A DNA stretch of 64,000 nucleotides from an uncultured delta proteobacterium (GCA_963771175.1 CAVYSY010000001.1:1-64000); one strand, 5' to 3'. Positions 35,837-61,467 are shown, counted from the first letter of the stretch. Notes: generated by a model not told the origin, from the letters alone. Program-made: numbers and translations.

Positions 35837-37522
35837 CTACGGCACCGGTGCCGAGACCGTCCGCAGGTCAGGGCTCAAGCCGAGCCCGGCCAGCCGCGCG
35901 TCCAAGCGGGCCCCATCCAGGGGCGGAGTGACGGCGGCGCGCTGTTCGGCGAGCCACTGAGCACAGTCCGTATGCTGGGCCTTCGTGCAGGCCAGGGCGG
36001 CCTCGGCCAGCAGGGTCTCGCGCTCCATTCCCATCCATCCCACGAGGGGCCGCAGCAGCGAGAAGGCTTGCGCGGCGTCCCCCTGCTGCCCGTGCAGCAG
36101 CGCCGCGTGGTACTGCGTCCACGGGGACCGAAGGCCCTCGGTCGCGAGGAAGCGCAGCTTCTCGGAGACGCTCAGTCCCGGGTGCAGGAAGACGGTGCGC
36201 GACAGCAGCATGGGCAGGTGACGCTCGCCCGGGTTCCACTCCTTGAGCTGGAGCGTGTGCTCGAACGCCTCTTCCACCTTGCCATCGGCGAGCAGGTACT
36301 GGGCATGCTTGGCCAGACTCTGCGGCGTGGGCTCGGTGGCGTAGGCGTGCTCCCATAGCGCCCGGTCCGATAGCCACGACTGCGCCTGGCGCCACGAGCC
36401 GAACCCGAAGGCGAGCAGCAGCACGGCCGCCAGGCCCATCGCCACGGGCCGCCACGCGGGGCTCATCTTGGGACCGAGCTCGTGGAGGAGCACGGTGGCG
36501 AGCGCGGCGGCGCCGAAGGCGGGCAGTAGCAGGTAGGTGTCCGAGACGAAGATGTTGGTCATCCGCGTCGTGACGAGCGCGAGTGGGAAGAGGATGAAGC
36601 CGAGCCAGGCGGCCACGTCGCGGCGGGGCCCCAGCTTGAAGGCGGCGAAGGCGAGCGCCGGAGCGAGCAGCGCCCCGACGAGGTTGAGCGTGCTGCCCGG
36701 GTAGTACTGCGCGGAGAGCCGGAGGGGCGCCACGAGCTGGAACACGTACCGCCCGAGCGAGAGCACGGCGATGCCCGAGTCCCCGTCGGTGAGCTTCGAG
36801 TTGCCATACCGCAGCAGGTAGGGGCCGTTGTAGTAGGCGAGGTTGACCGCGGCGGCGGCCACGAGGAGAGGCACGCAGCCCAGCAGCACGCCGAGGTGGG
36901 CGCGCCGCGACTCCCGGGGAGACTGGAGCCACACCCAGAGCGCCGCCCAGCAGGGCCACAGCAAACCGAGTGGCTGCGAGGCCATGGCCAGTGCGTACCA
37001 GCCGGCGATGCACAGGGCCGCCACCCACCGGTTGCGTCGAGGGTCCACGGTGAGTCGCAGCAGCTCGCGGGTGGCCAGCAGGAGGAAGAACACGGCCAGC
37101 AGGTGCTTGCGCGCGGAGATCCACGCCACCGAGTTGGCGACGACGGGGTGGAGCGCGAAGAGGGCCAGCACGGCCCGCGAGCCCCAGGAGGGCGGGCGCA
37201 CCCACCGCAGCGCCGAGCCCGCCACCAGGACGATGCCGAACCACAGGAGCACGTTGGTCAGGTGCAGCGTGCCCACGCCTGTCCACTCGCTCAGCCGCAG
37301 ATCCACCCAGAACGACAGGTCCCGCACCGGCTGCCGGTCCAGCACGGCGTTGCCGCGCACGGCCTCGAGGTAGTCGGACACGGAGCGCACGGTGCGCAGC
37401 GGAGCCAACAACTCCTGGTCATCCCTCCCGAGGATGGGGTCGAGCCGCACCGGTTCCCAGTAGACGCAGAGGAGCGCGAGCGCGAGCAGGGACGGGAAGG
37501 AGAGGGTGCGGAGGACTCTCAT
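35837..37522 (-). CDS. TMTC-like GT-C membrane glycosyltransferase with C-terminal TPR-like region
   Basis: RDD acidic loop, QPVRDLSF, HLTNVLL, LFALHPVVANSVAWISARK, LSAQY, DTYLLLP and SWLSDRALW. Confidence 0.75.
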   Translation of the reverse strand: MRVLRTLSFPSLLALALLCVYWEPVRLDPILGRDDQELLAPLRTVRSVSDYLEAVRGNAVLDRQPVRDLSFWVDLRLSEWTGVGTLHLTNVLLWFGIVLVAGSALRWVRPPSWGSRAVLALFALHPVVANSVAWISARKHLLAVFFLLLATRELLRLTVDPRRNRWVAALCIAGWYALAMASQPLGLLWPCWAALWVWLQSPRESRRAHLGVLLGCVPLLVAAAAVNLAYYNGPYLLRYGNSKLTDGDSGIAVLSLGRYVFQLVAPLRLSAQYYPGSTLNLVGALLAPALAFAAFKLGPRRDVAAWLGFILFPLALVTTRMTNIFVSDTYLLLPAFGAAALATVLLHELGPKMSPAWRPVAMGLAAVLLLAFGFGSWRQAQSWLSDRALWEHAYATEPTPQSLAKHAQYLLADGKVEEAFEHTLQLKEWNPGERHLPMLLSRTVFLHPGLSVSEKLRFLATEGLRSPWTQYHAALLHGQQGDAAQAFSLLRPLVGWMGMERETLLAEAALACTKAQHTDCAQWLAEQRAAVTPPLDGARLDARLAGLGLSPDLRTVSAPVP

Positions 37523-37692
37523 ACGGCGCGGATGGTACACCCGCCTCCGAGGGAGCCCGTCCCCGTTTCATCATCCCGGGCCCTCCTCCGCTCTTCGGGC
37601 AAGGAGGCAGATGCTCGCCCCTTCGCGAGCGGAATGATCCTGGGTATACCTGTCTTTCCGCGATGGATCCTCATGCCCGGGAGGTTGTTCAC

Positions 37693-38565
37693 ATGCTTCG
37701 CACTCGCACCGAGGAAGGTTTGCGCCCTTGGGTCATCGGTCTCACCCTGGCCCTCATCCTGGTGGGGTCGCGCGGCGCCGCGCAGACGCTGTCCAAGTCC
37801 GAGGAGTTCTTCGGCAAGGAGGAAGTGGCCCGTCAGGTGGGTCTCCACGAGAAGGGCTGCAAGAAGGGCGATGCGGGCGAGTGCTTCAACCTGGCCCTGG
37901 CCCATGCGCAGGGCCTCTCGGTGAAGAAGGACGATGCACGCGCGGCCACCCTCTACAAGAAGGCGTGCGACAAGGGCCATCTGGACGCGTGCAACAACCT
38001 CGGCATCGCCTACGCGGAGGGCGTGGGGGTGAAGAAGGATCCGAAGCAGGCCCTCACCCTCTTCGAGAAGACCTGCAAGGCGGAGGACGCGAAGGGCTGC
38101 TTCAACGTCGGCCTCGCCCGGCAGGCGGGCCTCGGGGTGGAGCAGGAGCCGGCGAGCGCCGCCACCTTCTTCGCGAAGGCGTGCGACAAGGGCCACGCCG
38201 ATGGCTGCTTCACCCTCGGCATGGCTCATGCGCAGGGCAGGGGAGTGAACAAGGATCCGGCGCGCGCCGCGGAGCTCCTGTCGAAGGCGTGCGAGGCGGG
38301 GAACAAGGTCGGCTGCAGCGTGCTCGGCGTGTCCTATATGACGGGCAATGGCGTGAAGCAGGACATGAAGCGGGCCGTGTCCCTCTTCGAGCAGGGCTGC
38401 GACGCGGGAGTGGCGGCGGGCTGCCTCAACCTCGGCATCGCCCACCGGCAGGGCAATGGCGTGGCGAAGAATCCGGAGCGCGCGAAGGCCCTCATCCAGA
38501 AGGCGTGCGACTCCGGGCTCCCTCCGGCCTGCGACGCGCTCCGGGCCTCCGTGAAGGCTCCCTAG
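37693..38565 (+). CDS. Sel1-like repeat (Cys-rich Hcp-type) secreted protein
   Basis: Repeats of C.NLG..Y..G.GV..D...A..L...KAC..G. Confidence 0.9.
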   Translation: MLRTRTEEGLRPWVIGLTLALILVGSRGAAQTLSKSEEFFGKEEVARQVGLHEKGCKKGDAGECFNLALAHAQGLSVKKDDARAATLYKKACDKGHLDACNNLGIAYAEGVGVKKDPKQALTLFEKTCKAEDAKGCFNVGLARQAGLGVEQEPASAATFFAKACDKGHADGCFTLGMAHAQGRGVNKDPARAAELLSKACEAGNKVGCSVLGVSYMTGNGVKQDMKRAVSLFEQGCDAGVAAGCLNLGIAHRQGNGVAKNPERAKALIQKACDSGLPPACDALRASVKAP

Positions 38566-38575
38566 AAGAGGGGTC

Positions 38576-39391
38576 CTAGACCCGAGACAGCAGGCGCTCG
38601 GTGGTGTCCCGCACCGCGCGCCGCGTGGCCTCGTCCTCGGCGACGGCGGGCCACGGCTGCTCGTTCTCCTCGATGAGCCAGCGGGCCTCGCCGGTGGGCG
38701 ACCAGCGCTCGCGCGCGAGGATCCGAGCGAGACGCGCGGCGCACACCTCGGGCGCCTCCCAGCCGCGCTTCACGAGCGACAGGAGCCAACCGACCGGACC
38801 CGACCGGGCCCCGAGGTCCGTGCGCACCACGCCGGGGTGGAGGACGACCACGTCGAGCGCCGGCCAGGCGGCGGCGAGGTCTCGCATGGCCAGGGCGAAG
38901 CAGAGCTTGGTGGTGCAGTAGGTGCGGATGCCGGAGAAGTCCTCGCCGGTGGGAGTGCGGGCGGCATCGAAGTGCCCCTTCAGGATCAATCCGGCGCTCA
39001 CCACCATGACGCGGCGCAGGCGCTCGGCGTCGAGCAGTGCCCGCTGCATCACGAGGGGCGCCAGGTGGTTGACGACGAAGGCGGTCTCGAGCCCGTCAGG
39101 GGTGAGCGCCCGTTTCGACGGCCACAGCCCGGCATTGTGGATGAGCGTCGCGCCGGGGGTGACGACCTCGACGAGGCGCTGCCCGAGGGCCCGGGCCTCG
39201 GCCAGTGACGAGAGGTCTCCCGGGACCGCGACGGCGTGGCCACCCTTCTGCTCGACGGCGGTGACGAGGGCATCGAGGCGCGCGCGGTCCCGGGCGACGA
39301 GGACGAGGCGATCGTCACGTCGCTCGGCGAGGGCAAGAGCCAGGGCGTGGCCGATACCGCGGGAGGCGCCGGTGAGGATCAAGTCACTCAT
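38576..39391 (-). CDS. short-chain dehydrogenase/reductase
   Basis: TGASRGIG, HNAG, YCTTK and HPGVVRT. Confidence 0.92.
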   Translation of the reverse strand: MSDLILTGASRGIGHALALALAERRDDRLVLVARDRARLDALVTAVEQKGGHAVAVPGDLSSLAEARALGQRLVEVVTPGATLIHNAGLWPSKRALTPDGLETAFVVNHLAPLVMQRALLDAERLRRVMVVSAGLILKGHFDAARTPTGEDFSGIRTYCTTKLCFALAMRDLAAAWPALDVVVLHPGVVRTDLGARSGPVGWLLSLVKRGWEAPEVCAARLARILARERWSPTGEARWLIEENEQPWPAVAEDEATRRAVRDTTERLLSRV

Positions 39392-39554
39392 GGTCAGAGC
39401 CTGACAGGATCGCCTCTAAACTTCCATTAGATCGCCTCATGCTTCTGAGAGTGTTTACCTGCTTACGCAACTCGCCAGGCCGCCTGGTGAGCAGAGAAGG
39501 GGAGTGGGGACTCCTCGAAGGCAATTCGTTTCGGAACAAATTGATTGTCAGGTC

Positions 39555-39574
39555 AATCGATTGTGAAATCGATT
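39555..39574. promoter_or_regulatory. putative operator AATCGATT-N4-AATCGATT upstream of the SulP/Ehr genes
   Basis: Two palindromic 8-mers 4 bp apart in a lower-GC intergenic region between divergent genes. Confidence 0.4.
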
Positions 39575-39866
39575 AGAGAGCGTTGGACAGCAATGTCAGC
39601 AGGGTGTATCAACCGGCTCGTTGCCCGTGGATGTGGTTGGCTCATCGAAGGTCAGTGGCTTGGTGTTGCATTTGCGGGATGCGTTTGTATTCAATGTCGA
39701 AATTGGCAGCTTGAGGTTCGTTTGGGCTCGGATGGTTGTACGTCCGGAGTCGTAGGGAGAGTTTGGCTTCAAACCACATCTGTCCGGACGTGAAGTAGGG
39801 ACCTTGGGTCCAACTCTGGGACGGATGCTCCGTCCCTCTCGTCCGGTCAAATTGGAGGGACATCGC

Positions 39867-41510
39867 GTGGAATCTGATTCAACGGCCCAACCGGCCGATG
39901 AGGATGACTCATCTTCCTGGAAGAGTGACCTCGTCTCTGGCTTTCTTGTCTTCCTCATCGCCCTGCCACTGTGTCTGGGCATCTCCATGGCCAGTGGCTT
40001 CCCGCCGCTGGCTGGCATCCTCACCGCTGTCATCGGCGGTCTTCTCTCCACCTGGTTGGGTAGTGCCCGCCTGACCATCAAGGGTCCCGCGGCGGGCCTC
40101 ATCGTCATCGCGCTCGGGGCCGTGCAGGAGCTGGGCGGCGGTGACATGCAGCTGGGCTACCGGCGCGCTCTCGCCACCATCGCCGTGGCCGCCGTGTTCC
40201 AGATTGTCTTCGCCCTCGTCCGCGCCGGCTCCCTCGGGGACTTCTTCCCCTCCTGTGTAGTGCAGGGAATGCTCGCCGCCATCGGCGTCATCATCTTCGC
40301 GAAGCAGGCCCATTCGCTGCTCGGTGTCACCCCGACCGGCAGCAGCTCCCTGGCTCTGCTCGAGGAGATTCCCCACAGCCTCACGAAGCTCAATCCATCC
40401 ATTGCCCTCATCGGCGTGCTGAGCCTCGTCATCCTCTTCGGCCACCCGTATCTCAAGGGCCGCCTGGCATGGCTCAAGAAGGTGCCCGCGCCGGTGCTGG
40501 TGCTGCTCGTGGCCGTGTCGCTGGGGTTCGCCTTCGAGCTCGACCAGGTCCACACGTACACCCTCGGCTTGATCGGGGCGTCCTACGCGATCGGGCCGAA
40601 CTTCCTCGTCAACCTGCCGGACAACTTCCTGTCCGTCATCACCTTCCCGGACTTCTCCGCCGTCTTCTCGGCCGCCTCGCTCAAGTACATCGCGATGTTC
40701 GCCATCGTGGGTAGCATCGAGTCCTTGTTGATAACGAAGGCCGTCGACTCGCTGGACCCGGAGAAGCGCCGCTCGGACCTGAACAAGGACCTGCTGGCCA
40801 CGGGCGTGGGCAACCTCGCGGCGGGTCTGCTCGGCGGTCTGCCGATGATCTCGGAGATCGTCCGCAGCTCGGCCAGCATCGGCTACGGAGCGAGGAGCCG
40901 GCTCTCCAACTTCTTTCACGGCCTGTTCCTGCTGCTCTTCGTGGCCTTCGCCCCAGCGCTCATCCAGCGCATTCCGCTGGCGGCGCTGGCGGCCATGCTC
41001 ATCTACACGGGGGTCCGACTGGCCTCGCCGTCGGCCTTCGTGCAGACGTTCCGCATTGGCCCCGAGCAGCTCTTCATCTTCAGTGTCACCCTCGTCACCA
41101 CCCTGGCCACGGACCTGCTGGTGGGGGTCATCACGGGCGTGGTGGTGAAGATGGGGGTGCACCTCGTCAACGGCGCGACGATGCGGGGCCTCTTCCGCCC
41201 CTTCGTCGTCGAGCAGGAACTGGGCGGCAAGGTGGTGCTACGTGTGGGCCATGCGGCCGTCTTCAGCAACTATCTCGGCCTGAAGAAGCGGCTCTCGCGT
41301 TTTTCCCATGCGCGTGAGGTGGTCATCGACCTGTCCAGGGCCCGGCTGGTGGACCACACGGTGATGGAGCGGCTGCATCAGCTCCAGGAAGAGTTCGAGC
41401 AGGAGCATCGGCGACTGGAACTGCGCGGGCTCGACCGACACCAGCGTCTCTCCCTGCATCCCCTGGCGGCATGCAAGCGATCGGGCCCCCGGTTCCGGGC
41501 CTCCTCGTAG
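39867..41510 (+). CDS. SulP/SLC26 family inorganic anion (bicarbonate/sulfate) transporter with STAS-like C-terminus
   Basis: DLVSGFLVFLIALPLCLGISMASG, IKGPAAGL, GSIESLL, GGLPMISEIVRSS and VIDLSRARLVDHT. Confidence 0.92.
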   Translation: MESDSTAQPADEDDSSSWKSDLVSGFLVFLIALPLCLGISMASGFPPLAGILTAVIGGLLSTWLGSARLTIKGPAAGLIVIALGAVQELGGGDMQLGYRRALATIAVAAVFQIVFALVRAGSLGDFFPSCVVQGMLAAIGVIIFAKQAHSLLGVTPTGSSSLALLEEIPHSLTKLNPSIALIGVLSLVILFGHPYLKGRLAWLKKVPAPVLVLLVAVSLGFAFELDQVHTYTLGLIGASYAIGPNFLVNLPDNFLSVITFPDFSAVFSAASLKYIAMFAIVGSIESLLITKAVDSLDPEKRRSDLNKDLLATGVGNLAAGLLGGLPMISEIVRSSASIGYGARSRLSNFFHGLFLLLFVAFAPALIQRIPLAALAAMLIYTGVRLASPSAFVQTFRIGPEQLFIFSVTLVTTLATDLLVGVITGVVVKMGVHLVNGATMRGLFRPFVVEQELGGKVVLRVGHAAVFSNYLGLKKRLSRFSHAREVVIDLSRARLVDHTVMERLHQLQEEFEQEHRRLELRGLDRHQRLSLHPLAACKRSGPRFRASS

Positions 41511-41550
41511 CAGGCTCCTTCAAGCCCTCTCCTGGTCGGCCCCCCTGTGT

Positions 41551-43296
41551 ATGCGGGCGTATTGCGCGTGCGCCTTGGGGCGGCCCCTCACACCTTTCCA
41601 ACGGGTGACTGCCTTGCTTCCTCTCCTCGAAATCGCCGTCGTCCTGGTCTTGCTGTTGCCATTGGGGCTGGCCCGGCTCTTTGGCCTGGAGCTCCTGGGG
41701 GCTGACTGGCCCCTGGGCGCGGGACTCGTCGTGCAGGCCGTGGTGGGCCTGCTTCTTCTCACCTACCTGAGAGGCGCCCTGGCTCCACGCGAGCGCGGGA
41801 GGGCGCTGGGGGGCTACCTCCTTGCCTTCGCGGGCCTGGGGGGCGCGTACCTCGCGGGCAAGAGCCTGTGGCTGCCCGTGTGCTGGGAGTTGTCCACGCT
41901 GGGCTTCGTGCTGGCGTTCTTCTCCGGAGGCCATCGCGCGAGCACGGTGCGCGGCGTGGTGGTGCTCTTCGCGGCCAGCGGCGTGTCCATGCTGCTGCTC
42001 GCCGTGTGGGTCTTCCTCCCCGAGGGCCCCATGGGCCTCACGTGCCTGGCGCTCGGGCTGATGCTGAAGGGCGCCTTCTTCGGGCTCCACTTCTGGTACG
42101 CCGAGGTACACGCGGGTGCGCCCAACCATGTCTCCGCGGCGCTGAGTGGCGCGGCGGTGAACCTTCCCGTGCTGCTCTTCGCGCGCTACGCGGCCGGGTC
42201 CGCCGAGCTGGCGCACCATGCTTCGTGGCTGGTGCCCCTGGCGGGTGTGGGCGTGTTCCTCGGGGGCCTGGTGGCCTTCTTCAAGGGGGACGTGCGGCGG
42301 GCGCTGGCGCACAGCACGGTGGAGAACGCCAACGTGCTGTGGCTGTGCCTGCTGACCTCCGTGTTCTTCGCGAGCGAGGGGCAGGCGGAGCTGGCCGCGG
42401 GCTTCCGCTGGGTGTTCTACGGGGTGCTCGTCCACCACGCCCTCTCCAAGACGTTCCAGTTCCTCGGGCTGGGCTACCTCTACGAGCTGGCGGGCAGCAG
42501 CGCGGTGGAGCTGTGCAAGGGCGCGGGGCGCGGCTCGGGGCTGGGCGCGGGCCTGCTGGTGGCGGGCGCGGCGAGCTTCGCGGCCATGCCGGGCACGGTA
42601 GGCTTCCTCGCCGAGACCTCACTGCTGTGGCTGCTGGGTCGTGCCTTCGGGCTGCCGCTGGCGCAGGCTCTTCCGGTGCTGGCGGGGCTCGTCTTCATGC
42701 TCATCGGCCTGGTGCTGGGGGGCTCGGCCCACCTGCGCCTCTACCTGCCCATGGTCCTCTCGGTGCCGGCCCAGGGGGTGGCGGCCGACGTGCACCCGGC
42801 GCCAGCGGGCGTGCGGTACGCGCTGGGCGCGGGAGCGGCGGCCCTCTTCGGCCTGCCAGTGGGGGTGCTGGTGTTCCTGGGCATGCCCGCGTCGGAGGCC
42901 GTGCCGCCAGTGCTGCGCGGGTGGTTGCTGCCGGCCGCGGCGACCTCCACCGTCATCGCCTTGATCTGGGCCGCGCTGGCCCGCTGGCGCTTCGTCCACC
43001 GCGTGCGCGCGCGCGTGCTGTGGGACTGCGGCAATCGCTACCGGGGGCCGGAGTTGTCCGTGCCCTCCAACGTCTTCTCCGCCCCGCTGGAGGCGTCGCT
43101 GGCCCGCTACTTCCTTCGCGAGGACGGGCGCGCGCGGCTGGACCAGAAGCTGCACTCCGCCCTGGAGCGGGTGCTGAACCTGGGGCGCTACTGGATTGGC
43201 GCCGTGGAGTCCGGTGCCGTCTCCACCTACCTGGCCTTCTCCACCCTGGTGCTGATGCTCACCGCCGGCATCCTGGTGCTGTTCAACCTCCTGTGA
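41551..43296 (+). CDS. hyfB: hydrogenase-4 component B-like antiporter-type membrane subunit (start uncertain)
   Basis: WELS, LKGAFFGLHFWYAEVHAGAPNHVSAALSG, LAHSTVEN, HHALSK, MPGTVGF and WDCG. Confidence 0.8.
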   Translation: MRAYCACALGRPLTPFQRVTALLPLLEIAVVLVLLLPLGLARLFGLELLGADWPLGAGLVVQAVVGLLLLTYLRGALAPRERGRALGGYLLAFAGLGGAYLAGKSLWLPVCWELSTLGFVLAFFSGGHRASTVRGVVVLFAASGVSMLLLAVWVFLPEGPMGLTCLALGLMLKGAFFGLHFWYAEVHAGAPNHVSAALSGAAVNLPVLLFARYAAGSAELAHHASWLVPLAGVGVFLGGLVAFFKGDVRRALAHSTVENANVLWLCLLTSVFFASEGQAELAAGFRWVFYGVLVHHALSKTFQFLGLGYLYELAGSSAVELCKGAGRGSGLGAGLLVAGAASFAAMPGTVGFLAETSLLWLLGRAFGLPLAQALPVLAGLVFMLIGLVLGGSAHLRLYLPMVLSVPAQGVAADVHPAPAGVRYALGAGAAALFGLPVGVLVFLGMPASEAVPPVLRGWLLPAAATSTVIALIWAALARWRFVHRVRARVLWDCGNRYRGPELSVPSNVFSAPLEASLARYFLREDGRARLDQKLHSALERVLNLGRYWIGAVESGAVSTYLAFSTLVLMLTAGILVLFNLL

Positions 43297-43309
43297 GGCT
43301 GCTCTTTCC

Positions 43310-44191
43310 ATGAATGCGCTCGTCGTACTCATCCCGGCCTTCGTGGCCGTCCCGCTGCTCGGTGGCGGCGTGGTGCGCAAGGTGCGCGCCCGCGCGCAGG
43401 GTCGCCGGGGTCCTCCGGTGCTGCAGAACCTCTTCGACCTGATGCGGCTGCTGAGGAAGCAGCCGGTGGACGGCCCGTACTCGGGCTTCTTCGCCGAGGT
43501 GTCCCCGGCGCTGGCGCTGCTGGCGGCGGTGGGCACCTGGTCCGTGGTGCTCTTCGGCTGGGCGCCGCCGCTGCTGGCCGTCTTCCTGCTGGTGCTGCAG
43601 TACGTGGCCACGCTCGCCTTCGCGATGGAGACGGGCACCAGCTTCGGTGGCCTGGGCGCCAGTCGCGAGGTGCTGCTGTCGGTGCTGGCCAAGCCCTGCC
43701 TGCTGTTGGCGATGATGCTGGCGGAGGCGCGGCTGCCCCGCATGAGCCTGGTGGAGGGCGCGCTGCTGGAGGCGCTGATGCTGGGGGCCGTCGGAGTGGC
43801 GCTGCTGGCGGAGATGGCGCGTCCGCCCTTCGATGACCCGCGCACGCACCTGGAGCTGACCATGGTGCACGAGGCCATGCTGCTGGAGGCCTCGGGCCGA
43901 AGCCTGGGCCTCTTCGAGCTGGCCAACCAGGTGAAGCTGGCGGCGCTGCTGTGTCTGCCCGTGCGCATCCTGCTGCGCCACGGCCAGGCCCTCGCCGGCG
44001 TGGCCCTGCCCGGCGTGCTGGAGGGCGTGCTCCTGGTGGGGTTGACGCTGGGGGCCGCGGCGATGCTCGGTTACTGGGAGGCGGTGAGCGTGCGCCGCAA
44101 GTGGACGTGGAACGCGGAGCTCCTGGGCCTGTCGCTGCTGCTGCTGGTGCTGGCCGCTTCGCTCCTCACCTTCTACCCGGAGGCCGTATGA
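43310..44191 (+). CDS. hyfC: HyfC/HycD (NuoH-like) membrane subunit
   Basis: RKVRARAQGRRGPPVLQ, FGGLGASRE and RPPFDDPRTHLELTMVHEAMLLEASG. Confidence 0.88.
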   Translation: MNALVVLIPAFVAVPLLGGGVVRKVRARAQGRRGPPVLQNLFDLMRLLRKQPVDGPYSGFFAEVSPALALLAAVGTWSVVLFGWAPPLLAVFLLVLQYVATLAFAMETGTSFGGLGASREVLLSVLAKPCLLLAMMLAEARLPRMSLVEGALLEALMLGAVGVALLAEMARPPFDDPRTHLELTMVHEAMLLEASGRSLGLFELANQVKLAALLCLPVRILLRHGQALAGVALPGVLEGVLLVGLTLGAAAMLGYWEAVSVRRKWTWNAELLGLSLLLLVLAASLLTFYPEAV

Positions 44192-44814
44192 GCGCCGACT
44201 TCGCGCACCTGCTCATCCTGTTGGTGGGCGTCATCATCCTGTTGGAGAACCGGCTGCGGCGCGTGGTGCTGCTGTCCGGCGTGCAGGGAGCCCTGCTGCT
44301 CATCCCCCTGCTGTTGAACCGCTCCGGCGAGCTGCACGGGGCCCACCTCTGGGGGCTGGTGGCCCTGATCATCGTCTTCAAGGCGGTGTTCACGCCCACC
44401 GTGCTGATGTGGTCCCTGCGGCGGCTGGGCCTGCCGGAGAACACCGGGCCCCGTCTGGGCTTCCTGCCCACGCTGCTGATGGTGCTCGGGGGCCTCGCCG
44501 CGGCGGGGGCGGCGCTGGCGCGCGTGGACGTCGCCTCGGTGGGCCTGAGCCGGCCGGCACTCGTCTACACGCTGCTGGTCATCTTCGTGGGGGCGCTCAC
44601 CTTCATCGTCCGGACGATGTGGGTGCCGCTCATCGTGGGCTTCGTCGTTTTCGAGAATGGCATCTTCCTGTTGACCCTGCAGCTCGGGACGAACCTGCCG
44701 CTGGGCATCGAGCTGGGGGCCTTCGTGGACACCCTCTTGGTGCTGGTGGCGGCGGCAACGCTGCAGGTCTGGTCCCGTACGCACCCTGGCGCCGAGGCGC
44801 CCCGGCTGCCCTGA
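44188..44814 (+). CDS. hyfE: HyfE-like membrane subunit
   Basis: ATGA overlap with hyfC, multi-TM, VGFVVFENGIFL and IELGAFVD. Confidence 0.85.
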   Translation: MSADFAHLLILLVGVIILLENRLRRVVLLSGVQGALLLIPLLLNRSGELHGAHLWGLVALIIVFKAVFTPTVLMWSLRRLGLPENTGPRLGFLPTLLMVLGGLAAAGAALARVDVASVGLSRPALVYTLLVIFVGALTFIVRTMWVPLIVGFVVFENGIFLLTLQLGTNLPLGIELGAFVDTLLVLVAAATLQVWSRTHPGAEAPRLP

Positions 44815-44825
44815 GGAACCCCGCA

Positions 44826-46028
44826 ATGGAATTCATCGGCTTCCTGGTGCTGAGCGCCATCGTCTTCCTGGCCCTCCTGGTCAACTTCGTCTTCGGCTCC
44901 TCGCGCACGCACCGCGGACTGGGGCTGTGGCTGCTGCTCTTCCTGCTGCTGGGCGGCGCCATCGCCACCTCGTGGTTCCTGACGGACTCCATCCTGCGGT
45001 GGGTGGTCATCGAGCTGAGCACGCTGCTGGGCGCGCTGCTCATCTCCATGACGCGCTCGCGGCGCGCGCTGGACGTGGCGTGGAAGTTCCTGCTCATCAA
45101 CTCCTTCGGACTGGGCATCGCCTTCCTGGGGCTCATCGTCCTGCTCTTCGCCAGCGGCACGCCGGACAGCCGGCAGGTCTTCCTGCTGCCGCTGGGCACT
45201 CCGCGCTCGGTGGTGCTGATGGAGGTGGGGCTGTGGCTCGCGGTGTTCGGCTACTCGGCCAAGCTGGGCCTCTTTCCCAACCACTTCTGGGTGGGGGATA
45301 CCTACGCGGAGGCGCCCAACCAGGTGGCGGCGCTGCTGGCGGCCTTCATCCCGGTGGCCGTCTGCGTCCCCCTGCGCAACCTGTTGGACCTGGACCGGGC
45401 GCTGCACGTGGGGCGCATCAGCGCGTCCGACGGCCTGCTGCTGCTGGGCGTGCTCACCATGCTCTACAGCGTGTGGACGCTGTACCAGACGCACGACCTG
45501 GACCGGGTGGGCGCGCTGGTGGGCCTCTTCCACAGCGGCGCGCTGGCGGTGGTGCTGTGGTTCCGCCCGGATGACCGCATCTTCTGGTTCCTCATGGCCA
45601 GCAACGTGGTGATGAAGGCGGTGCTCTTCACCAGCCTGGGAGCGCTGCGCTTCCACGTGAGGGACCACCGGCTGGAGGGACTGGGCGCGGTCCCCCGGAG
45701 CGCGCTGTGGCTCTTCCTGCTGGCGCTGGCGTGTGCCTTCGTGCTGCCGCTGTCACCGGTGTTCGTCTCGGACATGCTGCTGGTGCGCGCGGGCTCGCTG
45801 GGCGGGCGGCTGTGGGCGCTGGCGGTACCGGCGCTGGGCCTGGCCTTCTTCGCGGTGGGCCTGGGCAAGGTGCTGCCCATGACTGCGCTGGGGCAGCTCG
45901 ATGTCTCCGGAGAGGGCGCCGCCGCCTTCCGGACGCGCCTGGGCCTGAGCGTGGCCCTGCTGGCCCTCACGGTGGCGCTCGGCGTCTGGGGCCTCATCCA
46001 TTTCCCGATTGGAGGTTTTGGCCTGTGA
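44826..46028 (+). CDS. hyfF: HyfF-like antiporter-type membrane subunit
   Basis: WVVIELSTL, AWKFLLINSFGLGIAFLG, GYSAKLGLFPNHFWVGDTYAEAP and PLSPVFVSD. Confidence 0.85.
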   Translation: MEFIGFLVLSAIVFLALLVNFVFGSSRTHRGLGLWLLLFLLLGGAIATSWFLTDSILRWVVIELSTLLGALLISMTRSRRALDVAWKFLLINSFGLGIAFLGLIVLLFASGTPDSRQVFLLPLGTPRSVVLMEVGLWLAVFGYSAKLGLFPNHFWVGDTYAEAPNQVAALLAAFIPVAVCVPLRNLLDLDRALHVGRISASDGLLLLGVLTMLYSVWTLYQTHDLDRVGALVGLFHSGALAVVLWFRPDDRIFWFLMASNVVMKAVLFTSLGALRFHVRDHRLEGLGAVPRSALWLFLLALACAFVLPLSPVFVSDMLLVRAGSLGGRLWALAVPALGLAFFAVGLGKVLPMTALGQLDVSGEGAAAFRTRLGLSVALLALTVALGVWGLIHFPIGGFGL

Positions 46029-47411
46029 GTGATTCTGCCTCCCTCATTACGGGTGTCTTCCGCCGCGAGCATGGCGGCGCATGGCACCTCTATTCGCTGA
46101 CGGACCGGGCGCTATCCTCGGAGGTGGTGTCCGCCACGGACCCCGAGGCGCTCGTGTCCGAGCGCCACATCCCCACATGGCTGTGGCGGCACTCGGTGGG
46201 GGTGCCCCACGGGCCCGAGGACCTGCGGACCCCCTCGGAGTCCCAGGGCCCGCCGGGCAATCTGGAGTACGCGGGACTCCAGGTGTCGGTGAGCCCGCGG
46301 GGCTATTCGCACGCGGTGGGCCCCATCCACGCGGGCGTCATCGAGCCGGGTCACTTCCGCTTCTCGTTGGAGGGCGAGGTCATCCAGTCGCTGAACATCC
46401 GCCTGGGCTTCCAGCACCGCGGGGTGCGGCGGCTGATGGAGGGCCAGCCTCCGCTGCGGGTGATGCCGCTGGCCGAGTGCATCAGCGGTGACAGCACGGT
46501 GGCCTATGGCCTCGCCTTCAGCCGGCTGTACGAGGAGGCGGCGGGGTGGGGCGTGTCGCCCGAGGTGGAGCTGCTGCGTCTGGTGATGTTGGAGCTGGAG
46601 CGGGTGGCCATCCATGTGGGGGACATCGGCGCCATGGCGGGGGATATCGGCTTCTACCCGCTGCTCGGCCTGTGCAGCACGGACCGGGGCGTGGCGCTGG
46701 GCGCGCTGGAGACGCTCACCGGCTCGCGCTTCGGGCGTGGAGCGCTCTGGCCGGGCGAGGTGCGGTTGAGCCGCAAGCTGACGCGGGAGGATCTCCAGCC
46801 GACGGCGCGGCGGCTGCTGGACATGTGGGCCCGGGTGGAGGACCAGGCGCAGCGGGCGCTCGATGACTCCACGGTCCGCGAGCGCCTGCAGGGCTGCGGC
46901 CGGCTCACGCGGGAGCAGGTGCTGGAGAATGGCTTCGTGGGCATGGCCGCGCGGTGCACGGGCCTGAAGCGGGACCTGCGCCTCGCCGAGCCGCTGTACC
47001 GGGACGGCGCGGGAGCGTCGTTGGAGCTGGCGCCAGACGCCGCGCTGATGCAGGGGGATGCGTACTCGCGCTTCGCGCTCCGGGTGGAGGAGGTGCGCCA
47101 CAGCGTGGAGTGGCTGGCGGCGGTGCTGCCCCGGCTGGACGTGACGTGTGGCGGCCAGGGCCCGTCTGCGCGTCATGGAGCGGCTCGACTGGAAGCCGGG
47201 CGTGTATGCGAAGGCGGTGGAGGGCTGGCGCGGCCCGGTGCTGGTGGCGCTGGACCTCGATGGGGAGGGGCGCGTGCGGCAGAGCTACCTGCGCGATCCG
47301 TCCGTCCTCAACTGGCATGCGTTGGAGTTGGTGGTGCGCTCGGAGCTCATCGGCGACTTCCCGCTCAACAACAAGTCCTTCAACCTCAGCTATGCGGGGG
47401 TGGATCTCTGA
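46025..47411 (+). CDS. HyfG/HycE (NuoD-like) large subunit lacking NiFe ligands, Ehr-type (one frameshift near 47160)
   Basis: VGPIHAGVIEPGHFRF, LGFQHRG, LAECISGDS, ELERVAIH, VEGWRG and GDFPLNNKSFNLSYAGVDL. Confidence 0.9.
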
Positions 47412-48265
47412 TGTCGATCTTCGAGTGGAAGAACTTCTTCTCCCGGCCGGCCACGCAGGATTACGCGAAGGCCTCGCCGGTGCAGGCGCGGGCTCGCGGG
47501 GTGCCCGTGCCGGTGCGCGATGCGGCGGGCTCGTGCGCGGACTGTGGGGTATGCGAGCGTGTCTGCCCCTCGCGGGCGGTGAAGGTGGAGGGCTCGCGGG
47601 CGCTCGCCTTCGACTATGGCGCGTGCCTGCAGTGCGGGCTGTGCGTGCGGGTCTGTCCGGAGCAGCGGCTGGAGGACTCGGGGCTGACGTACGCCTTCGC
47701 TCTCGAGCGGGACACGCTGAAGGTGACGTTCGACGGCTGCGACTTCGAGCCACGCGCGGAGCCGGTGCCGGAGAACGTGGAGCGCTTCCGGACGCTGACG
47801 GGGGGCCGGGGCCTCAACTACCGCGAGGTGGCGGCGGGCAACAACACGGTGGAGTGCGAGCTCAACGCGAGCTTCAACAACGTGTTCGACAGCGAGTCGC
47901 TGGGCATCCGGAGCGTGGCCTCGCCGAAGCACGCGGACGTGGTGCTGTTCTCGGGGCCGGTGGGGCCGAACATGGTGGGGCCCCTGCGGACGGCCTGGGA
48001 CGTGATGCCGGAGCCGAAGGCGCTGGTGGCCTGTGGCACCGAGGCGGTGAGCGGAGGCCTGTTCCCCATGGGCGAGCGGCCGAAGACACCGGACCTGTTC
48101 ATCGCGGGGGACCCGCCGAGACCGGACACGGTGCTCAACGCGCTGCGCTACCTGATGGGGAGGATGAAGTACTCCTTCCAGCACGCGCTGCGGGACCGGG
48201 TAGCGGAGCTGCGCCAGCCGTCGGGCCTCCCGGCAGGACAGGCACATCGGGGCTCTCGCTCCTGA
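47411..48265 (+). CDS. 2x[4Fe-4S] ferredoxin (HyfH-like) fused to a degenerate HyfI/NuoB-like small subunit
   Basis: CADCGVCERVCP and CLQCGLCVRVCP, then ASPKHADVVLFSGPV, MPEPKALVACG and IAGDPPRP. Confidence 0.88.
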   Translation: MSIFEWKNFFSRPATQDYAKASPVQARARGVPVPVRDAAGSCADCGVCERVCPSRAVKVEGSRALAFDYGACLQCGLCVRVCPEQRLEDSGLTYAFALERDTLKVTFDGCDFEPRAEPVPENVERFRTLTGGRGLNYREVAAGNNTVECELNASFNNVFDSESLGIRSVASPKHADVVLFSGPVGPNMVGPLRTAWDVMPEPKALVACGTEAVSGGLFPMGERPKTPDLFIAGDPPRPDTVLNALRYLMGRMKYSFQHALRDRVAELRQPSGLPAGQAHRGSRS

Positions 48266-48450
48266 GTGCAATCCGTGCACGAGCCACTCGCGGGCTGTCT
48301 CCAGGACGCAGGATGTGCAGGGCACTTGTTCCTGAGCGCAGTGCCCATGTCGCTGGCCTGGGTGATGCAGTGAACTCCGGGCGAGTGGCGAGGACATGAT
48401 GCGGGTCCTGCCGCCTGTCGTGTCACGCGACGCATAGCGGAGAAATGGTC

Positions 48451-48663
48451 ATGATGCGCAACGAAGCTGGCTGGGACCGGGCGGCGCGGGTGCTGGTGGG
48501 GATTGTGGGTCTGTCGATGGTGTTCCTGGGGCCGAAGACGTGGTGGGGGCTGATCGGGTTGATTCCGCTGCTCACGGGGCTCATCGGTTACTGCCCGCTC
48601 TACCAGCTGTTCGGCTTCAGCTCGTGCCCCGTCAAGGCGCTGCGGGAGACTCCGCCCAGGTAA
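48451..48663 (+). CDS. DUF2892 (YgaP-like) small membrane protein
   Basis: NEAGWDRAARVLVG...LLTGLIGYCPLYQLFGFSSC. Confidence 0.88.
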   Translation: MMRNEAGWDRAARVLVGIVGLSMVFLGPKTWWGLIGLIPLLTGLIGYCPLYQLFGFSSCPVKALRETPPR

Positions 48664-48837
48664 ACCCCCACCGCGAGCCGCCCCGACGCAGGTTCTGCGT
48701 GCGAGGGGGCTCGCGGACGCCGCTCCCGCAATCCTTGCGTGTCCGGAGGGGCGGATGGTTGATGAGTGGACAGGCACGAGGACTGCAACGTCCCGGGTGG
48801 GCCCAGCGCACTGGTGCCCGAATCCAAGGAGGTTTTT

Positions 48838-49224
48838 GTGAGCATCAAATGGATGGGCGCGATGTTGGCGCTCGTGGTGGGCCCGACTGCATGGGCCGCG
48901 GCGCCGAAGTCCACGCCGGCGCTGATGGCGAAGGGCAAGGCCTCGTACGCCACCAACTGCCTCGCGTGTCATGGCGAGAAGGGCGAGGGCAACGGCCCGA
49001 CGGGTCAGTACCTGGCCCCGAAGCCGCGCAACTTCGTGGCCGAGCCCTTCAAGAAGGGCAACAAGCCGGAGGAGGTCTTCAAGAGCATCACCGACGGCCT
49101 CCAGGGCAGCACGATGGTGTCCTTCGCCAAGCTTCCCGAGGAGGAGCGCTGGGCGCTCGCCTACTACGTGCTCGACTTCCAGCCGAAGGCGAAGCCGGCC
49201 CCCGCGAAGAAGGGCAAGAAGTAG
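48838..49224 (+). CDS. monoheme cytochrome c
   Basis: Signal peptide, CLACHG, PKPRNF, distal Met (GSTMVSF). AAGGAGG RBS before GTG. Confidence 0.9.
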   Translation: MSIKWMGAMLALVVGPTAWAAAPKSTPALMAKGKASYATNCLACHGEKGEGNGPTGQYLAPKPRNFVAEPFKKGNKPEEVFKSITDGLQGSTMVSFAKLPEEERWALAYYVLDFQPKAKPAPAKKGKK

Positions 49225-49424
49225 TCACGAGGCCGCACCGGCCCGGTTTCCCTGGTGCCTGGGGGGGAGCACCGGGGCACGGCAGGCGGGGCTGAGTTGC
49301 GATGGGCGGCCTGACGCCGGAGAGCGCGCTGGTGCCTCCAGCGCTCCCTGGACGGCTGCCTGGAGATTCGCGGGGGCCTCCTGGATGGGCCGTGGCGCCA
49401 GCTTCTGGGAGAACACGAACCTTC

Positions 49425-49970
49425 TCACGGTGGAGCGGATGCCTCGGGGATGCACTCGTTCGCGCCGTTGCAGACGTAACCGGGCGCGCATTCCAGCTCA
49501 TCAGCCCGACAGTAGGGTTCGCATTCCCCGACTGCGACATCACACACATAGCCCCCACAGAGGGGGTCCCCGCGGCTCGTGCACTTCCTCACGCATTCGT
49601 TCGTGTCGCCGCGACAGTAGAACCCGTCCGCGCAGGGGCCCAATGCGCAATCAGGAGCACATTTCCCCTTCACACACGCATAGCCGCCGCACAGCGTCGC
49701 AGCGGTGTCCTGGGTGCACTCCGTGCCCACGCAGAACCCCGCTTCACAGACATGGCCCTGCGTGCACTCGGCGGAGCTCGTGCACATCGTCAGGCAGGCT
49801 CCATAGTGGGAATCGCACGTGTAGGGCGCACAGAGCTCGACCGAACAGCCCGGTGCGTCGCCCGTCGAACCGTCCCCCTGCTCGTTCGAGGAGGGGGACG
49901 ACCCGTTCGCGTCACATCCCGCGAGCACGCCGAGCATCAATGAGAGTGACCACAATGACGCCGCGGGCAT
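49425..49970 (-). CDS. Cys-rich repeat lipoprotein
   Basis: Lipobox LAGC. Three Cys-rich repeats (C..Y.C....G.C...C.....C..G..C). Confidence 0.7.
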   Translation of the reverse strand: MPAASLWSLSLMLGVLAGCDANGSSPSSNEQGDGSTGDAPGCSVELCAPYTCDSHYGACLTMCTSSAECTQGHVCEAGFCVGTECTQDTAATLCGGYACVKGKCAPDCALGPCADGFYCRGDTNECVRKCTSRGDPLCGGYVCDVAVGECEPYCRADELECAPGYVCNGANECIPEASAPP

Positions 49971-49978
49971 GGCTGCTT

Positions 49979-51569
49979 TCAAGGCAGGCTGTAGAGCACC
50001 CCATATGGCGGAGAGATGCTGCTGTCCGCGGGGAGTGACGGCGGGGGCAGACCGCCAACGGTGTCGAGCCAGCCCATCGCACCTTGATCCTCATGCTCGA
50101 GGATGTGGCAGTGCATGATGGTGCGCCCCTCGTAGACGGTGCTCGTGGCGGCGTTCAGATCGAAGCGCACCGAGCAAGCCGACGTCAGCGTGTCGTAGTA
50201 CTCGCCGTTCTCGAAGGAGCCCGAACAGTTCTGCGCCTGGAAGTGGTAGACGTGCAGGTGGAAGGGGTGCTGCGTATTGCCCGAGACGCTCCACTCCTGC
50301 ACCTTGTCGGCGGGCAGCGTGAAGGTCGGGACGTCGTGGTCGAACGCCGTGCCGTTGAGAGTGCGCGCGCCCATGCGGACACTCGTCACGTTCAGTGCGG
50401 AGCTGGGCACACCGCGCAGATCGCGCAGGTAGGCAGGACGGAGCGCCGACCAGGTCGATGCCACTGCTGCCCTGGCTGTACGGGCCGACGGTCGTGTTGC
50501 CGGCCCCGTTCGACGTAGATGTTCGCGATGGTGGTGCCGTTGATGGTGAGGGTCGAGTCGTTGGTGCAGCGCACCGCGAGGTCGGCGCGCGAGGCGCCGG
50601 TGAGGCTGATCGAGCCGGTCGAGAGCACCTTGGGGGCGGTCGTGCGCCACACACCGTCGCGCGCGAGCAGCGCGACCTCGCAGTTGGAGCCGACCCCGAC
50701 GGTCTTCTCCGTCGCGGAGCGATCGGCGAGCAGGACGCGCCAGTGCTGCCACTCGTTCGCGGGAGCGCAGAAGGCGCCCTGCACCAGTCCGTTGACGGTC
50801 CAGGTCGGGCTCAAGCGTGCCGCTCATCAACGTGTCGCCGCCGGTGCCGGCCGCGCCGGGATCGAGATAGGCGATCACGAGCTGGCGCTCGGTCATGGCG
50901 GCGACGTTCGCGGGGATGCCGTCGTTGCCGTCGTCGATGAGCATCTGGCCGAAGGCGCCGCCGGAGACCTGGAGGATAGGTCGAGCCGTGGTGGTGCGCG
51001 TGGTACCAGTAGGTGCCGCCCATGTGGTCGGCCGGGATGTCGTAGACGAAGTCGCCGCCGAAGCCGCCCTCGAAGGAACGGCTCACGTCGTCGCTGGGAG
51101 ACTCGCCCGAGATGTGCAGCCCGTGGGTGTGCACGTTGCTGACGTTCGGGTCCTTGAACACGTTCATGGCCGAGCTGGCCGGCTGGTACGGCAACCTGTT
51201 GTGGAAGCGCAGCACGTACTTGTTGCCGGGCTGCATCTTGATGGTCGGACCCGGAATCGAGGGGGCGGTGCCGGCCTGCCGGTACGCGCGCGTGGTGAGC
51301 GTCTGGCCACCGATGAGGAACGACGCCGCGCCCATCTCCAGCGTGCCGCTGTAGTAGGCGGTCGGATTGGTGTCCGACGGGGCGTGGTAGGTCCACTGGA
51401 ACTGGGGCGGATCGGTGATCACGTTCGTCGCCGGGCACACGGTGAGTGACCCGGAGCCGCGGCTCGCCAGTCCCTGGCTCTCGTTGTTGCATCCGGTCAG
51501 GCAGAGCGTACCGAGAATCGCGATGGCGCTCGTACGAGCCGCCAGTTCAACCGATGGGCTTCGCTTCAT
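49979..51569 (-). CDS. multicopper oxidase (laccase-like) lipoprotein (frameshifted)
   Basis: All four Cu motifs: HTHG, WYHAH, HPFHLH and HCHILEHEDQGAM. Lipobox LTGC. Confidence 0.92.
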
Positions 51570-51625
51570 GTTCGTCTCTCTTTGTCTAGAGGCGGTTCGG
51601 TAGGGAAGGAGTTGCCGCGGATCTT

Positions 51626-52153
51626 CTACCAGCAGGGTCCTGGCGTGCCGCTCGGGCATGTGGTCGTCGCGTCTGTCCTCGCTCCGTCCAGGAGCGCGTC
51701 TTTCAGCACGGCGTTCGTCAGCCTGGTGCCTTCGAGGTTGGCGCCGGTCAGGTTGGCGCCGGTCAGGTCGACACTCGTCAAGTTCGCGCCGGCCAGGTCC
51801 GCGCCCGCGAGGCTTGCATGGCTCAGCACCGCCTTGAACAGGTCGGCACCCACGAGGTTGGCACCCGTCAAGTCAGCGTTGCTCAGGTTCGAGCGGCGCA
51901 TGCTCGTGCCGTCCAGGTTCGCACTGACCAGCCGGCATTCTCGAAGGTCGGGGTTCAACTCGAGCCAGTTGCCGGCATCGCACGGCTCGGTCGCAACGTC
52001 TCGCACCCCGGTGTCGTGACCATCATGCTGCCCGGCGTCATCGACAGGGTCGTGCTCATGTGTCGGGTCCCCGAGCTCGCCGGCGGAACCACAGGCCCCC
52101 AGCGCAAGTGCCAGCACGACGACGTACGGATGCACGGGTCTTTTTACGATCAC
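51626..52153 (-). CDS. pentapeptide-repeat lipoprotein (start uncertain)
   Basis: Lipobox LGAC and A(D/N)LxG pentapeptide repeats. Confidence 0.85.
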   Translation of the reverse strand: MIVKRPVHPYVVVLALALGACGSAGELGDPTHEHDPVDDAGQHDGHDTGVRDVATEPCDAGNWLELNPDLRECRLVSANLDGTSMRRSNLSNADLTGANLVGADLFKAVLSHASLAGADLAGANLTSVDLTGANLTGANLEGTRLTNAVLKDALLDGARTDATTTCPSGTPGPCW

Positions 52154-59069: not shown

Positions 59070-59313
59070 AGAGGGCTGCCTCCAAGGGGGTAGGGGCATG
59101 TCGTTGCCGCGTGACGGCAACGTGCCTCCCGCCCAGTGCACATTCCCAGCCAAGGGCTGACGCGAGGCGTTATCCTGGCCCACTCCGAATAATTCCAGGG
59201 GGTTGGCGCGTTCGCTTTTGATCGCCCGTCCGGTTGGTTGCTACCGGACGGTGGCGGGGGTGGAGAGCGCGTTACGCACCCGTAGCAGCCCGGTGGCGCG
59301 TTCGTGACGCGGT

Positions 59314-61327
<2,014 letters not shown>

Positions 61328-61348
61328 CGGAGTGACAGGGTAGGACCC

Positions 61349-61393
61349 AAGGGCCGGCGCTTCCGCGAGGGAGTGTCCGGCCCTTCCTCTTTT
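61349..61393 (+). terminator. probable intrinsic terminator after dnaK
   Basis: Stem aagggccgg-cgcttcc...gggagtgt-ccggccctt followed by cctctttt. Confidence 0.6.
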
Positions 61394-61467
61394 CAGGACA
61401 CCCGGGGCCCGGCCGCATATGAAGGAGGTGTGGCCCGGATGAGCGGGCACACGGCGGAAGGAGACCC

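Follow-up and report, generated by a model that had tools for sequence, protein, structure and literature searches.

The window analysed here, a 64,000-nucleotide (nt) stretch of DNA from an uncultured delta proteobacterium, carries on its plus strand at 39867-48265 a gene for a SulP-family anion transporter followed by six genes for an energy-converting hydrogenase-related (Ehr) complex. We propose, with a probability of roughly one in two, that this complex is an ion-translocating module that would help, together with bicarbonate-type transporters, to supply inorganic carbon, to maintain pH homeostasis, or to do both. The Ehr family is already known; the new element is a stripped-down, cysteine-poor type with a bicarbonate-type carrier alongside. 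The original descriptions of Ehr are reportedly those of Coppi and of Marreiros. The available text of PMC10284858, PMC6349859 and PMC7894505 places Ehr near the group 4 (4f) hydrogenases, without CxxC motifs and with function unknown, and according to the first and last of these a role was never established.

A stripped-down Ehr complex encoded behind sulP

The seven genes share one strand, and their junctions range from -4 to +40 nt (Table 1). Gaps of 40 nt and 13 nt separate sulP from the hyfB-like gene and the hyfB-like gene from the nuoH-like gene. The nuoH-like and hyfE-like genes share 4 nt, 11 nt lie between the hyfE-like and hyfF-like genes, and the hyfF-like gene overlaps the large-subunit gene (ehrL) by 4 nt. 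The ehrL stop and the start of the small-subunit gene (ehrS) overlap as TGATG. As predicted from the sequence, the stretch is an operon-like unit of sulP and six Ehr-complex genes. Hyp and HycI families were absent among the window open reading frames (ORFs) scanned with Pfam, a set that frameshifts leave incomplete. No cluster protein reached a curated NCBIfam cut-off, so we give these proteins no finer names. The hyfE-like protein, which has no Pfam match, scored 47.6 bits against the 'hydrogenase 4 membrane subunit' model (cut-off 136) and is 41-46% identical to the products of the syntenic genes in three related loci (L001-L003).

The large subunit, EhrL, lacks the ligands of a NiFe center. 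LAECISGDS is encoded at 46469 and DFPLNNKSF at 47355, the two motifs lying in different reading frames. Among solved structures, the best-matching large subunits are MbhL (6cfw_L, E 2.4e-28) and HycE (7z0s_E, E 2.1e-23). In alignments to these hydrogenases, S-G-D-S of EhrL falls on C-G-I-C of both proteins and N-L-S stands at the D-P-C position of HycE. All four NiFe cysteine ligands are replaced: SGDS takes the place of CGxC, NLSYAG takes the place of the C-terminal cysteine pair, and the protein ends DFPLNNKSFNLSYAGVDL.

The two reading frames reflect a +1 frame change between 47164 and 47166, which splits ehrL into 380 N-terminal codons and 82 codons in the +1 frame, and the upstream frame stays open past the break into ehrS. 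These features could mean that ehrL is a pseudogene and that the complex is no longer made in the window organism. However, the homologues (460-461 aa) are continuous across the break, reading ...GGQGPLLVMERL..., which indicates that the window has one extra base near 47165. The first frame is 93% identical to its closest relative (P0002, 461 aa), the piece past the break still matches homologues closely, and the other six cluster genes are intact, each forming a single tblastn segment. Many other window genes also show frame breaks, including genes expected to be intact. The dnaK gene at ~59.3-61.3 kb (59300-61340, plus strand) falls into 10 or more pieces in changing frames, although the peptides they encode are otherwise well conserved; the genes for DUF1015 and for a multicopper oxidase are both in two parts, and the phase of the GC content at third codon positions (GC3) flips repeatedly along the window, mostly at 1-22 kb. 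We therefore read the ehrL break as probably a sequence error, and decay of the gene appears very improbable.

Homologue searches placed EhrL in a small clade. A search with its N-terminal piece returned four proteins of 76-93% identity, and then proteins of 40-54% identity from Leptospira and Leptospiraceae. With the 93% relative as query, HMMER found 3909 cluster representatives (50% identity clusters) at E <= 1e-3 and 292 at E <= 1e-30; the 292 clusters come from many phyla, and Ehr complexes are thus widespread. RxCGxC is present in only 6 of the best 150 representatives, and nearly all of the others carry ExI[SA]GD together with DFPLxNKSFNLSYxGxDL. We compared at least 80 related Ehr loci. 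Among those listed, L001-L003 make up the window clade (L002 is almost without flank), and their hyfB-, nuoH-, hyfE- and hyfF-like, large-subunit and small-subunit genes follow the order seen in the window. In a neighbour-joining tree (MAFFT alignment, no support values), the window clade branches beside L001 within the Leptospira clade, and the window clade includes all Leptospira species matched in the EhrL search.

The small subunit, EhrS, joins two CxxCxxCxxxCP ferredoxin motifs to a NuoB domain (PF01058). Its NuoB part reads GNNTVECE, GTEAVSGG and GDPPRP, whereas most relatives have GCNxCE, GACAxSGG and PGCPP; three of the four NuoB-type cluster ligands are gone. The NuoB cysteines are kept in 59 of the 74 loci with a readable small subunit and lost in the other 15. 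Mainstream Ehr large subunits (L071, L043, P0126, P0139) have a weak match to PF00329, a NuoC-like N-terminal domain, which was not detected in the large subunits of the window clade (P0002, P0090, L001, P0123). The mainstream C-termini, DFPLCNKSFNLSYCGHDL, also carry two cysteines at new positions where the window clade has N and A/V.

By these motifs, the window complex is a stripped-down Ehr type shared with Leptospiraceae and not a hydrogenase. Because the NiFe ligands, the NuoB ligands and the mainstream C-terminal cysteines are missing, the canonical electron path would end at the ferredoxin domain, and the complex is probably not a conventional electron-transfer enzyme. An earlier, sequence-only reading of this DNA had described sulP directly upstream of hyfB-C-E-F-G-(H/I)-like genes with short or overlapping junctions, no hyp genes nearby, LAECISGDS in place of RxCGxC, a replaced C-terminal DPCxxC, and hence an Ehr-type complex without NiFe ligands. 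The seven genes on one strand, none more than 40 nt from the next, bear out the layout, the Pfam scan agrees on the hyp genes within the ORFs it covered, and the motifs of EhrL and its homologues, together with the alignments to solved hydrogenases, confirm the ligand losses. That reading overlooked the ehrL frameshift, the NuoB cysteine loss, and Leptospiraceae as the nearest relatives beyond the four close proteins.

As a separate observation, the mainstream large subunits (L004-L080) end DFPLCNKSFNLSYCG(H/F)DL, with two conserved cysteines and often one histidine. These sites differ from the hydrogenase ligand positions and possibly form a new metal site; the window clade is without them. 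Mainstream loci also have their own regulator. A gene coding for a HTH_17 (excisionase-type) domain and a PTS EIIA (PtsN-like) domain is found shortly before hyfB (e.g. L009:3806-4513, L006:3488-4294 and L043:3865-4554), which suggests PTS-Ntr-type control of mainstream Ehr. Clustering found this regulator gene upstream in 28 of 80 loci, and tblastn added a few more, with no match in the window or L001-L003.

The membrane arm retains ion-translocating residues

With a single exception, key columns of the membrane arm vary little or not at all among 59-74 sequences. The hyfB-like subunit conserves the Glu of transmembrane helix (TM) 5 and the Lys and His of TM7; its TM8 Lys column, the exception, has Asn in the window clade, whereas 50 of 56 other loci keep the Lys. 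The hyfF-like subunit retains the TM5 Glu, the TM7 Lys and an acidic residue in TM12, and acidic residues of the NuoH-like subunit are likewise conserved (69 sequences). We tied these columns to complex I residues through alignments to Protein Data Bank structures, and identified them by the roles that we take the residues to play in complex I. The closest solved chain to the hyfF-like subunit is 6u8y_H of MBS (E 3.4e-15).

Ehr complexes are commonly regarded as ion pumps driven by electron flow from some donor to some acceptor. Applied to the window, this view would make ferredoxin or a partner dehydrogenase the electron source for the two ferredoxin-type clusters of EhrS, and the transporters would be unrelated or only co-regulated. 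The window, L001 and L003 have kept the two ferredoxin-type motifs whole, which agrees with this view. In the available parts of three papers, formate dehydrogenase-Ehr complexes with redox coupling are proposed (PMC6349859), Ehr subunits are described as abundant in Geobacter on formate (PMC7894505), and the Ehr operon of Leptospira interrogans is up in a perRA perRB mutant (PMC13066512). Ferredoxin, HdrA-like, CCG-domain and aldehyde:ferredoxin oxidoreductase (AFOR) genes also come after the mainstream Ehr genes of L021 (12036-19748, minus strand), and their products could be redox partners of Ehr complexes that keep the cysteines. Against a redox pump in the window clade stand the loss of NiFe ligands, NuoB cluster ligands and mainstream C-terminal cysteines, and the loss of the cysteines of both ferredoxin motifs in L002. 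The Pfam scan of window ORFs found no dehydrogenase partner gene beside the cluster. For a clade without NiFe and NuoB ligands but with ion-translocating residues, we consider the usual redox pump unlikely.

Inorganic-carbon genes lie beside some Ehr clusters

We compared the flanks of the Ehr loci using ORFs of at least 130 aa within 6 kb of the cluster, minus three recurrent families. Pfam scans covered 388 of these 389 ORFs, and whole loci were also searched by tblastn with SulP, Sbt, DabA, beta-carbonic anhydrase and P-II queries. An inorganic-carbon-type gene was found at 8 of the 80 loci plus the window. Besides regulators and antiporter-like subunits, SulP was the most recurrent flank family, present at six loci including the window: clustering of flank ORFs recovered it in five loci and the window, and tblastn with the window SulP in 4 of 80. 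A CLC channel gene was found in L022 and a formate/nitrite transporter gene in L031, and the remaining flanks held heterogeneous housekeeping genes.

The link was complete in the window clade, where a SulP or Sbt_1 gene lies beside the cluster on the same strand in all three evaluable loci (the window, L001 and L003). In L001, a metagenome-assembled genome of the Leptospiraceae, a gene for a SulP 43% identical to that of the window comes directly after ehrS. In L003, from L. fluminis, an Sbt_1 gene (PF05982, E 6.8e-111) and then an alginate-export-type porin gene directly precede hyfB. Other clades provided further cases. A gene for a SulP-P-II fusion, 54% identical to the window SulP, directly follows ehrS in an Isosphaeraceae locus (L032). 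A Planctomycetaceae locus (L071) has on one strand ehrS, DabA (PF10070, E 1.9e-241), a DabB-like gene, a PF00361 gene and another SulP-P-II fusion (49%). A second Planctomycetaceae locus (L060) has a convergent beta-carbonic anhydrase gene right after ehrS. Two loci from Verrucomicrobiota, Opitutia (L043, L039) carry a more distant SulP-STAS gene at the operon head, and a further Verrucomicrobiota locus (L057) has a STAS remnant.

The inorganic-carbon link was commoner where the NuoB cysteines are lost (5/16) than where they are kept (4/59; Fisher p 0.018 with the window counted and 0.048 when it is left out), in loci that are phylogenetically non-independent. Eight such ORFs among 389 flank ORFs greatly exceed a background of 0.1-0.4%, a set of assumed rates with no matched control loci behind them. 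The sequence-only reading had named co-occurrence of this Ehr clade with SulP and carbonic anhydrase as a check and had suggested a possible role in inorganic-carbon or anion uptake or pH homeostasis. A SulP gene does stand beside the cluster in the window and L001, but SulP is not the conserved partner, for Leptospira has an SbtA-like gene instead. The wider co-occurrence holds for 3/3 evaluable loci of the window clade and 8/80 overall, with none at the rest. The inorganic-carbon idea itself gains from the neighbourhoods and from co-repression in Leptospira, though most Ehr loci lack the link, and the mechanism and the substrate of SulP stay matters of inference.

The two SulP-P-II fusion genes (L032:9991-11949 and L071:10383-12368; P-II domain PF00543) lie in a gene string with Ehr, and no protein of this architecture was noted among the best 120 matches to the window SulP. 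A tblastn search with the L032 fusion appeared to extend past the window sulP stop, but we judged this extension spurious because the P-II part alone matches nothing in the window. Genes for 2-oxoacid (branched-chain) dehydrogenases stand beside three Ehr loci (L082, a B. stagnalis plasmid, 13942-18923; L061:1785-8028; L035:75-1364 and 11907-14327). These neighbours could conceivably tie Ehr to decarboxylation that releases CO2 or to reducing equivalents.

The pairing of SulP with Ehr in the window could also be coincidence. Orthologues 58-88% identical to the window SulP occur across the Myxococcota, with 58-80% identity in Archangium, Cystobacter, Sorangium, Myxococcus and others, and close relatives of EhrL number only four, so SulP does not depend on Ehr. 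The transporter would then be a resident myxobacterial anion carrier, for sulfate for example, and an Ehr cluster from a Leptospiraceae-like lineage would have landed downstream with no functional tie. The drop from four close EhrL relatives to ~50% identity in Leptospiraceae fits this account, as does the placement of the window clade inside the Leptospira clade. The SulP position varies, from before the cluster in the window to after it in L001, and a PALP (cysteine-synthase-type) gene that follows the SulP-P-II gene of L032 could point to sulfur assimilation. Other evidence argues for a real association. A SulP gene adjoins the cluster on the same strand in three separate Ehr sub-clades, the corresponding place in Leptospira is taken by a non-homologous carrier of the bicarbonate type that is co-regulated, and DabA/DabB, the P-II fusions and carbonic anhydrase point to carbon, not sulfur. 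The 40-nt sulP-hyfB junction has no terminator-like site. Any transfer of the ehr genes would be old, because their GC3 of 0.91-0.94 matches the host (GC is 0.645-0.728 across the window, per 2 kb). We regard coincidence as doubtful.

Published expression data from Leptospira and Methylocystis

The available text of PMC13066512 describes an L. interrogans operon of an alginate-export family protein gene and six genes whose products match the window cluster. These genes (RS17565-RS17595, the porin and six Ehr genes) showed log2 fold changes of -2.0 to -2.4 in a host-implanted dialysis chamber. An SbtA-like gene is listed directly before the operon and was repressed along with it. Because the locus tags are consecutive, the SbtA-like gene presumably adjoins the operon, and the order would be that of L003. 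Repression in a CO2-rich host would fit an uptake system that is induced at low CO2.

A second dataset, from a 2026 preprint, concerns Methylocystis (10.1101/2025.08.29.672306, as far as its available text goes). Seven genes named 'group 4f hydrogenase-related', possibly of the Ehr family, were strongly induced at pH 5, and no H2 evolution was detected. Branched-chain 2-oxoacid dehydrogenase (BCKDH) genes and the 'group 4f' genes were induced together at low pH.

A proposed model for Ehr in inorganic-carbon supply

SulP (BicA-type), SbtA and DAB transporters are all energised by cation influx. Cycling of H+ or Na+ is therefore the simplest common denominator for an Ehr complex that works with such carriers. 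In the simplest mechanism, Ehr would cycle H+/Na+ and keep up the cation gradient for a Na+-coupled HCO3- carrier, or else balance pH. The carrier fed by this gradient would be SulP in the window, the SbtA-like protein in Leptospira, and DabAB in one planctomycete locus. A bolder and less likely version would have the remodelled peripheral arm itself take part in vectorial CO2 hydration.

Taken furthest, cyanobacterial NDH-1/CupA and DAB would be joined by the cysteine-free Ehr clade as a third complex-I-derived machine, evolved independently, that spends energy to accumulate inorganic carbon, and the EhrL pocket would be repurposed. The former NiFe pocket (with the invariant motifs E-x-I-S-G-D and D-F-P-L-N-N-K-S) would then be a CO2/HCO3- or proton site, linked to the membrane potential by way of the NuoH-like and antiporter-like subunits, and the neighbouring SulP or SbtA-like carrier would serve the same pathway. 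We consider this extended version quite improbable.

Several observations weigh against an inorganic-carbon or pH role for the window complex. The link is missing at 72 of the 80 Ehr loci, and the window clade is a small sample among the matches listed. A plasmid collection held 67 records with Ehr-like large subunits, and inorganic-carbon genes were found in none of the three annotated loci inspected, which come from Rhizobium, Burkholderia and Allomeiothermus. The window SulP reached neither NCBIfam equivalog (DauA, 168 bits against a cut-off of 614; BicA, NF050096, 139 against 880). Since SulP is widespread and Ehr is rare in Myxococcota, the adjacency could result from insertion beside a resident gene, and among the best 120 SulP matches none could be assigned to the contig of P0004, whose large subunit is 81% identical. 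The intact ferredoxin motifs would suit a redox or redox-sensing role, and ehrL is frameshifted in this sequence. In the available text of PMC13066512, the authors tie the L. interrogans operon to oxidative stress, noting that it is serum-repressed in addition to its response in the perRA perRB mutant, and a carbonic anhydrase gene rises in the dialysis-chamber experiment in which the operon falls. We conclude that these oxidative-stress data and the carbonic anhydrase rise, as reported there, neither favour nor exclude a role in inorganic-carbon supply.

The repeated pairing with non-homologous bicarbonate-type carriers makes Ehr function testable, as do DabAB, the P-II fusions and carbonic anhydrase at other loci. 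A CO2/HCO3- or pH role, if true, would bear on Leptospira physiology and on the evolution of complex I relatives, because the clade includes the matched Leptospira species. Our literature search, with bioRxiv supplements and subscription journals outside its scope, found no paper that ties Ehr or group 4f to SulP, SbtA, DAB or carbonic anhydrase.

Comparison with known systems

The window complex has the subunit set of known Ehr complexes, such as that encoded by Geobacter sulfurreducens GSU0739-45 (EhrA-1, EhrC, EhrL, EhrS), whose large subunit is also without NiFe cysteines according to the available text of PMC7894505, PMC10284858 and PMC6349859. It differs from mainstream Ehr in the lost NuoB cysteines, the undetected NuoC-like domain and the absent DFPLCNKSFNLSYCGHDL cysteines. 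The window also has no detectable gene for the HTH-PTS-EIIA regulator, and it has a bicarbonate-type transporter gene attached.

Hyf and Hyc of E. coli (the formate hydrogenlyase, 7z0s) and MBH of P. furiosus (6cfw) have the hyfB-C-E-F-G-like order and the ferredoxin- and NuoB-like modules in common with the window. In contrast to these group 4 [NiFe]-hydrogenases, the window complex has its NiFe ligands replaced, no hyp or hycI gene in the scanned ORFs, HyfH- and HyfI-like modules fused into one protein, and NuoB ligands lost. MBS/MBX of Pyrococcus furiosus (6u8y) is likewise hydrogenase-derived and makes no H2, and its large subunit is a weaker match to that of the window (6u8y_L, E 2.6e-14). 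MBS keeps its Fe-S chain and reduces sulfane sulfur, whereas the chain of the window complex is broken at NuoB.

In DAB (DabA/DabB, MpsAB) and cyanobacterial NDH-1, a complex-I-type antiporter-like subunit energises inorganic-carbon accumulation (PMC13684180, PMC13144422 and PMC6689103, available text). The window complex resembles these CO2-uptake systems by functional analogy and by gene neighbourhood at one locus (L071), and not by membership. DabA (PF10070) was not found among the scanned window ORFs, and tblastn with the L071 DabA was empty at 29001-59000. No CupA/ChpXY-type Pfam family was found among the scanned ORFs. BicA has the SulP fold in common with the window SulP, whose tail is weakly STAS-like and which lacks a P-II domain. 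The fusion of P-II to window-SulP orthologues in two planctomycete Ehr loci recalls the control of SbtA by SbtB (10.1101/2021.02.14.431189, available text). Mrp antiporters have PF00361 subunits with the TM5 Glu and TM7 Lys in common with the window complex. The small Mrp subunits (MrpB, C, E, F and G) were not found in the cluster with Pfam, and a NuoH-like subunit and a peripheral arm are present instead.

The sulP region, gene coordinates and neighbouring features

The C-terminus of the window SulP scored 26.5 bits against STAS_2, for which the cut-off is 29.2. A homologue search with the hyfB-like protein gave only six matches, and the expected orthologue from the P0004 genome was not among them. 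No sigma-70-like promoter site was found at 39392-39866. A scan of 38500-49500 gave 0 promoter-like sites and three terminator-like sites, all intragenic, against 4.4 expected from shuffles. We considered a leader RNA before sulP at an imperfect inverted repeat (39778-39852) and rejected it: there was no Rfam match at E <= 1, and the fold did not outdo that of shuffled sequence (z -1.44). An AT-richer segment upstream of sulP (39530-39580) contains repeated ATCGATT/AATCGAT words that the repeat finder missed and that could be an operator.

Table 1. Features of the sulP-Ehr region of the window.
Feature	Position	Strand	Family match
SDR gene, divergent from sulP	38579-39391	-	
SDR-sulP intergenic region, presumed regulatory	39392..39866		
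sulP, SulP-family anion transporter, 547 aa, weak STAS-like C-terminus	39867..41510	+	PF00916, E 4.8e-56
hyfB/ehrA-like antiporter-like membrane subunit, 581 aa	41551..43296	+	PF00361, E 1.7e-15
nuoH/hyfC-like membrane subunit, 293 aa	43310..44191	+	PF00146, E 1.5e-20
hyfE/ehrC-like small membrane subunit, 208 aa	44188..44814	+	NCBIfam NF008556, E 1.8e-12, below cut-off
hyfF-like antiporter-like membrane subunit, 400 aa	44826..46028	+	PF00361, E 1.6e-13
ehrL large subunit, first frame	46025..47164	+	PF00346, E 2e-17
ehrL continuation in +1 frame, LRVMERLDWKP ... DFPLNNKSFNLSYAGVDL, then stop	47166..47411	+	PF00346, E 6e-5
ehrS, ferredoxin-like and NuoB-like fusion, 284 aa	47411..48265	+	PF01058 and Fer4 families

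A cytochrome c gene (48766-49221, plus strand) and the multicopper-oxidase gene (49982-51659, minus strand) come after the cluster in the window. In L067, 3 kb separate the Ehr cluster from a downstream gene for a multicopper-oxidase/cytochrome c fusion (9116-10618), and a cytochrome c gene lies upstream of the cluster in L060 (519-1727). Each of these placements may be coincidence.

Besides dnaK, frame-broken stretches in the window lie at 18338-20039 (plus strand), 49982-51659 (minus strand) and 13500-17200 (minus strand), and they have the look of indel errors and not of real pseudogenes. A 500-aa ORF antisense to dnaK (59984-61483, minus strand) matches PF10712, 'NAD-specific glutamate dehydrogenase', at E 2.1e-70. 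Since it lies opposite Hsp70 coding frames, it is most probably a shadow ORF rather than a gene. Finally, a 567-aa ORF at 35840-37540 (minus strand), with no Pfam or NCBIfam match, has a GC3 of 0.93 and a strong coding signal.

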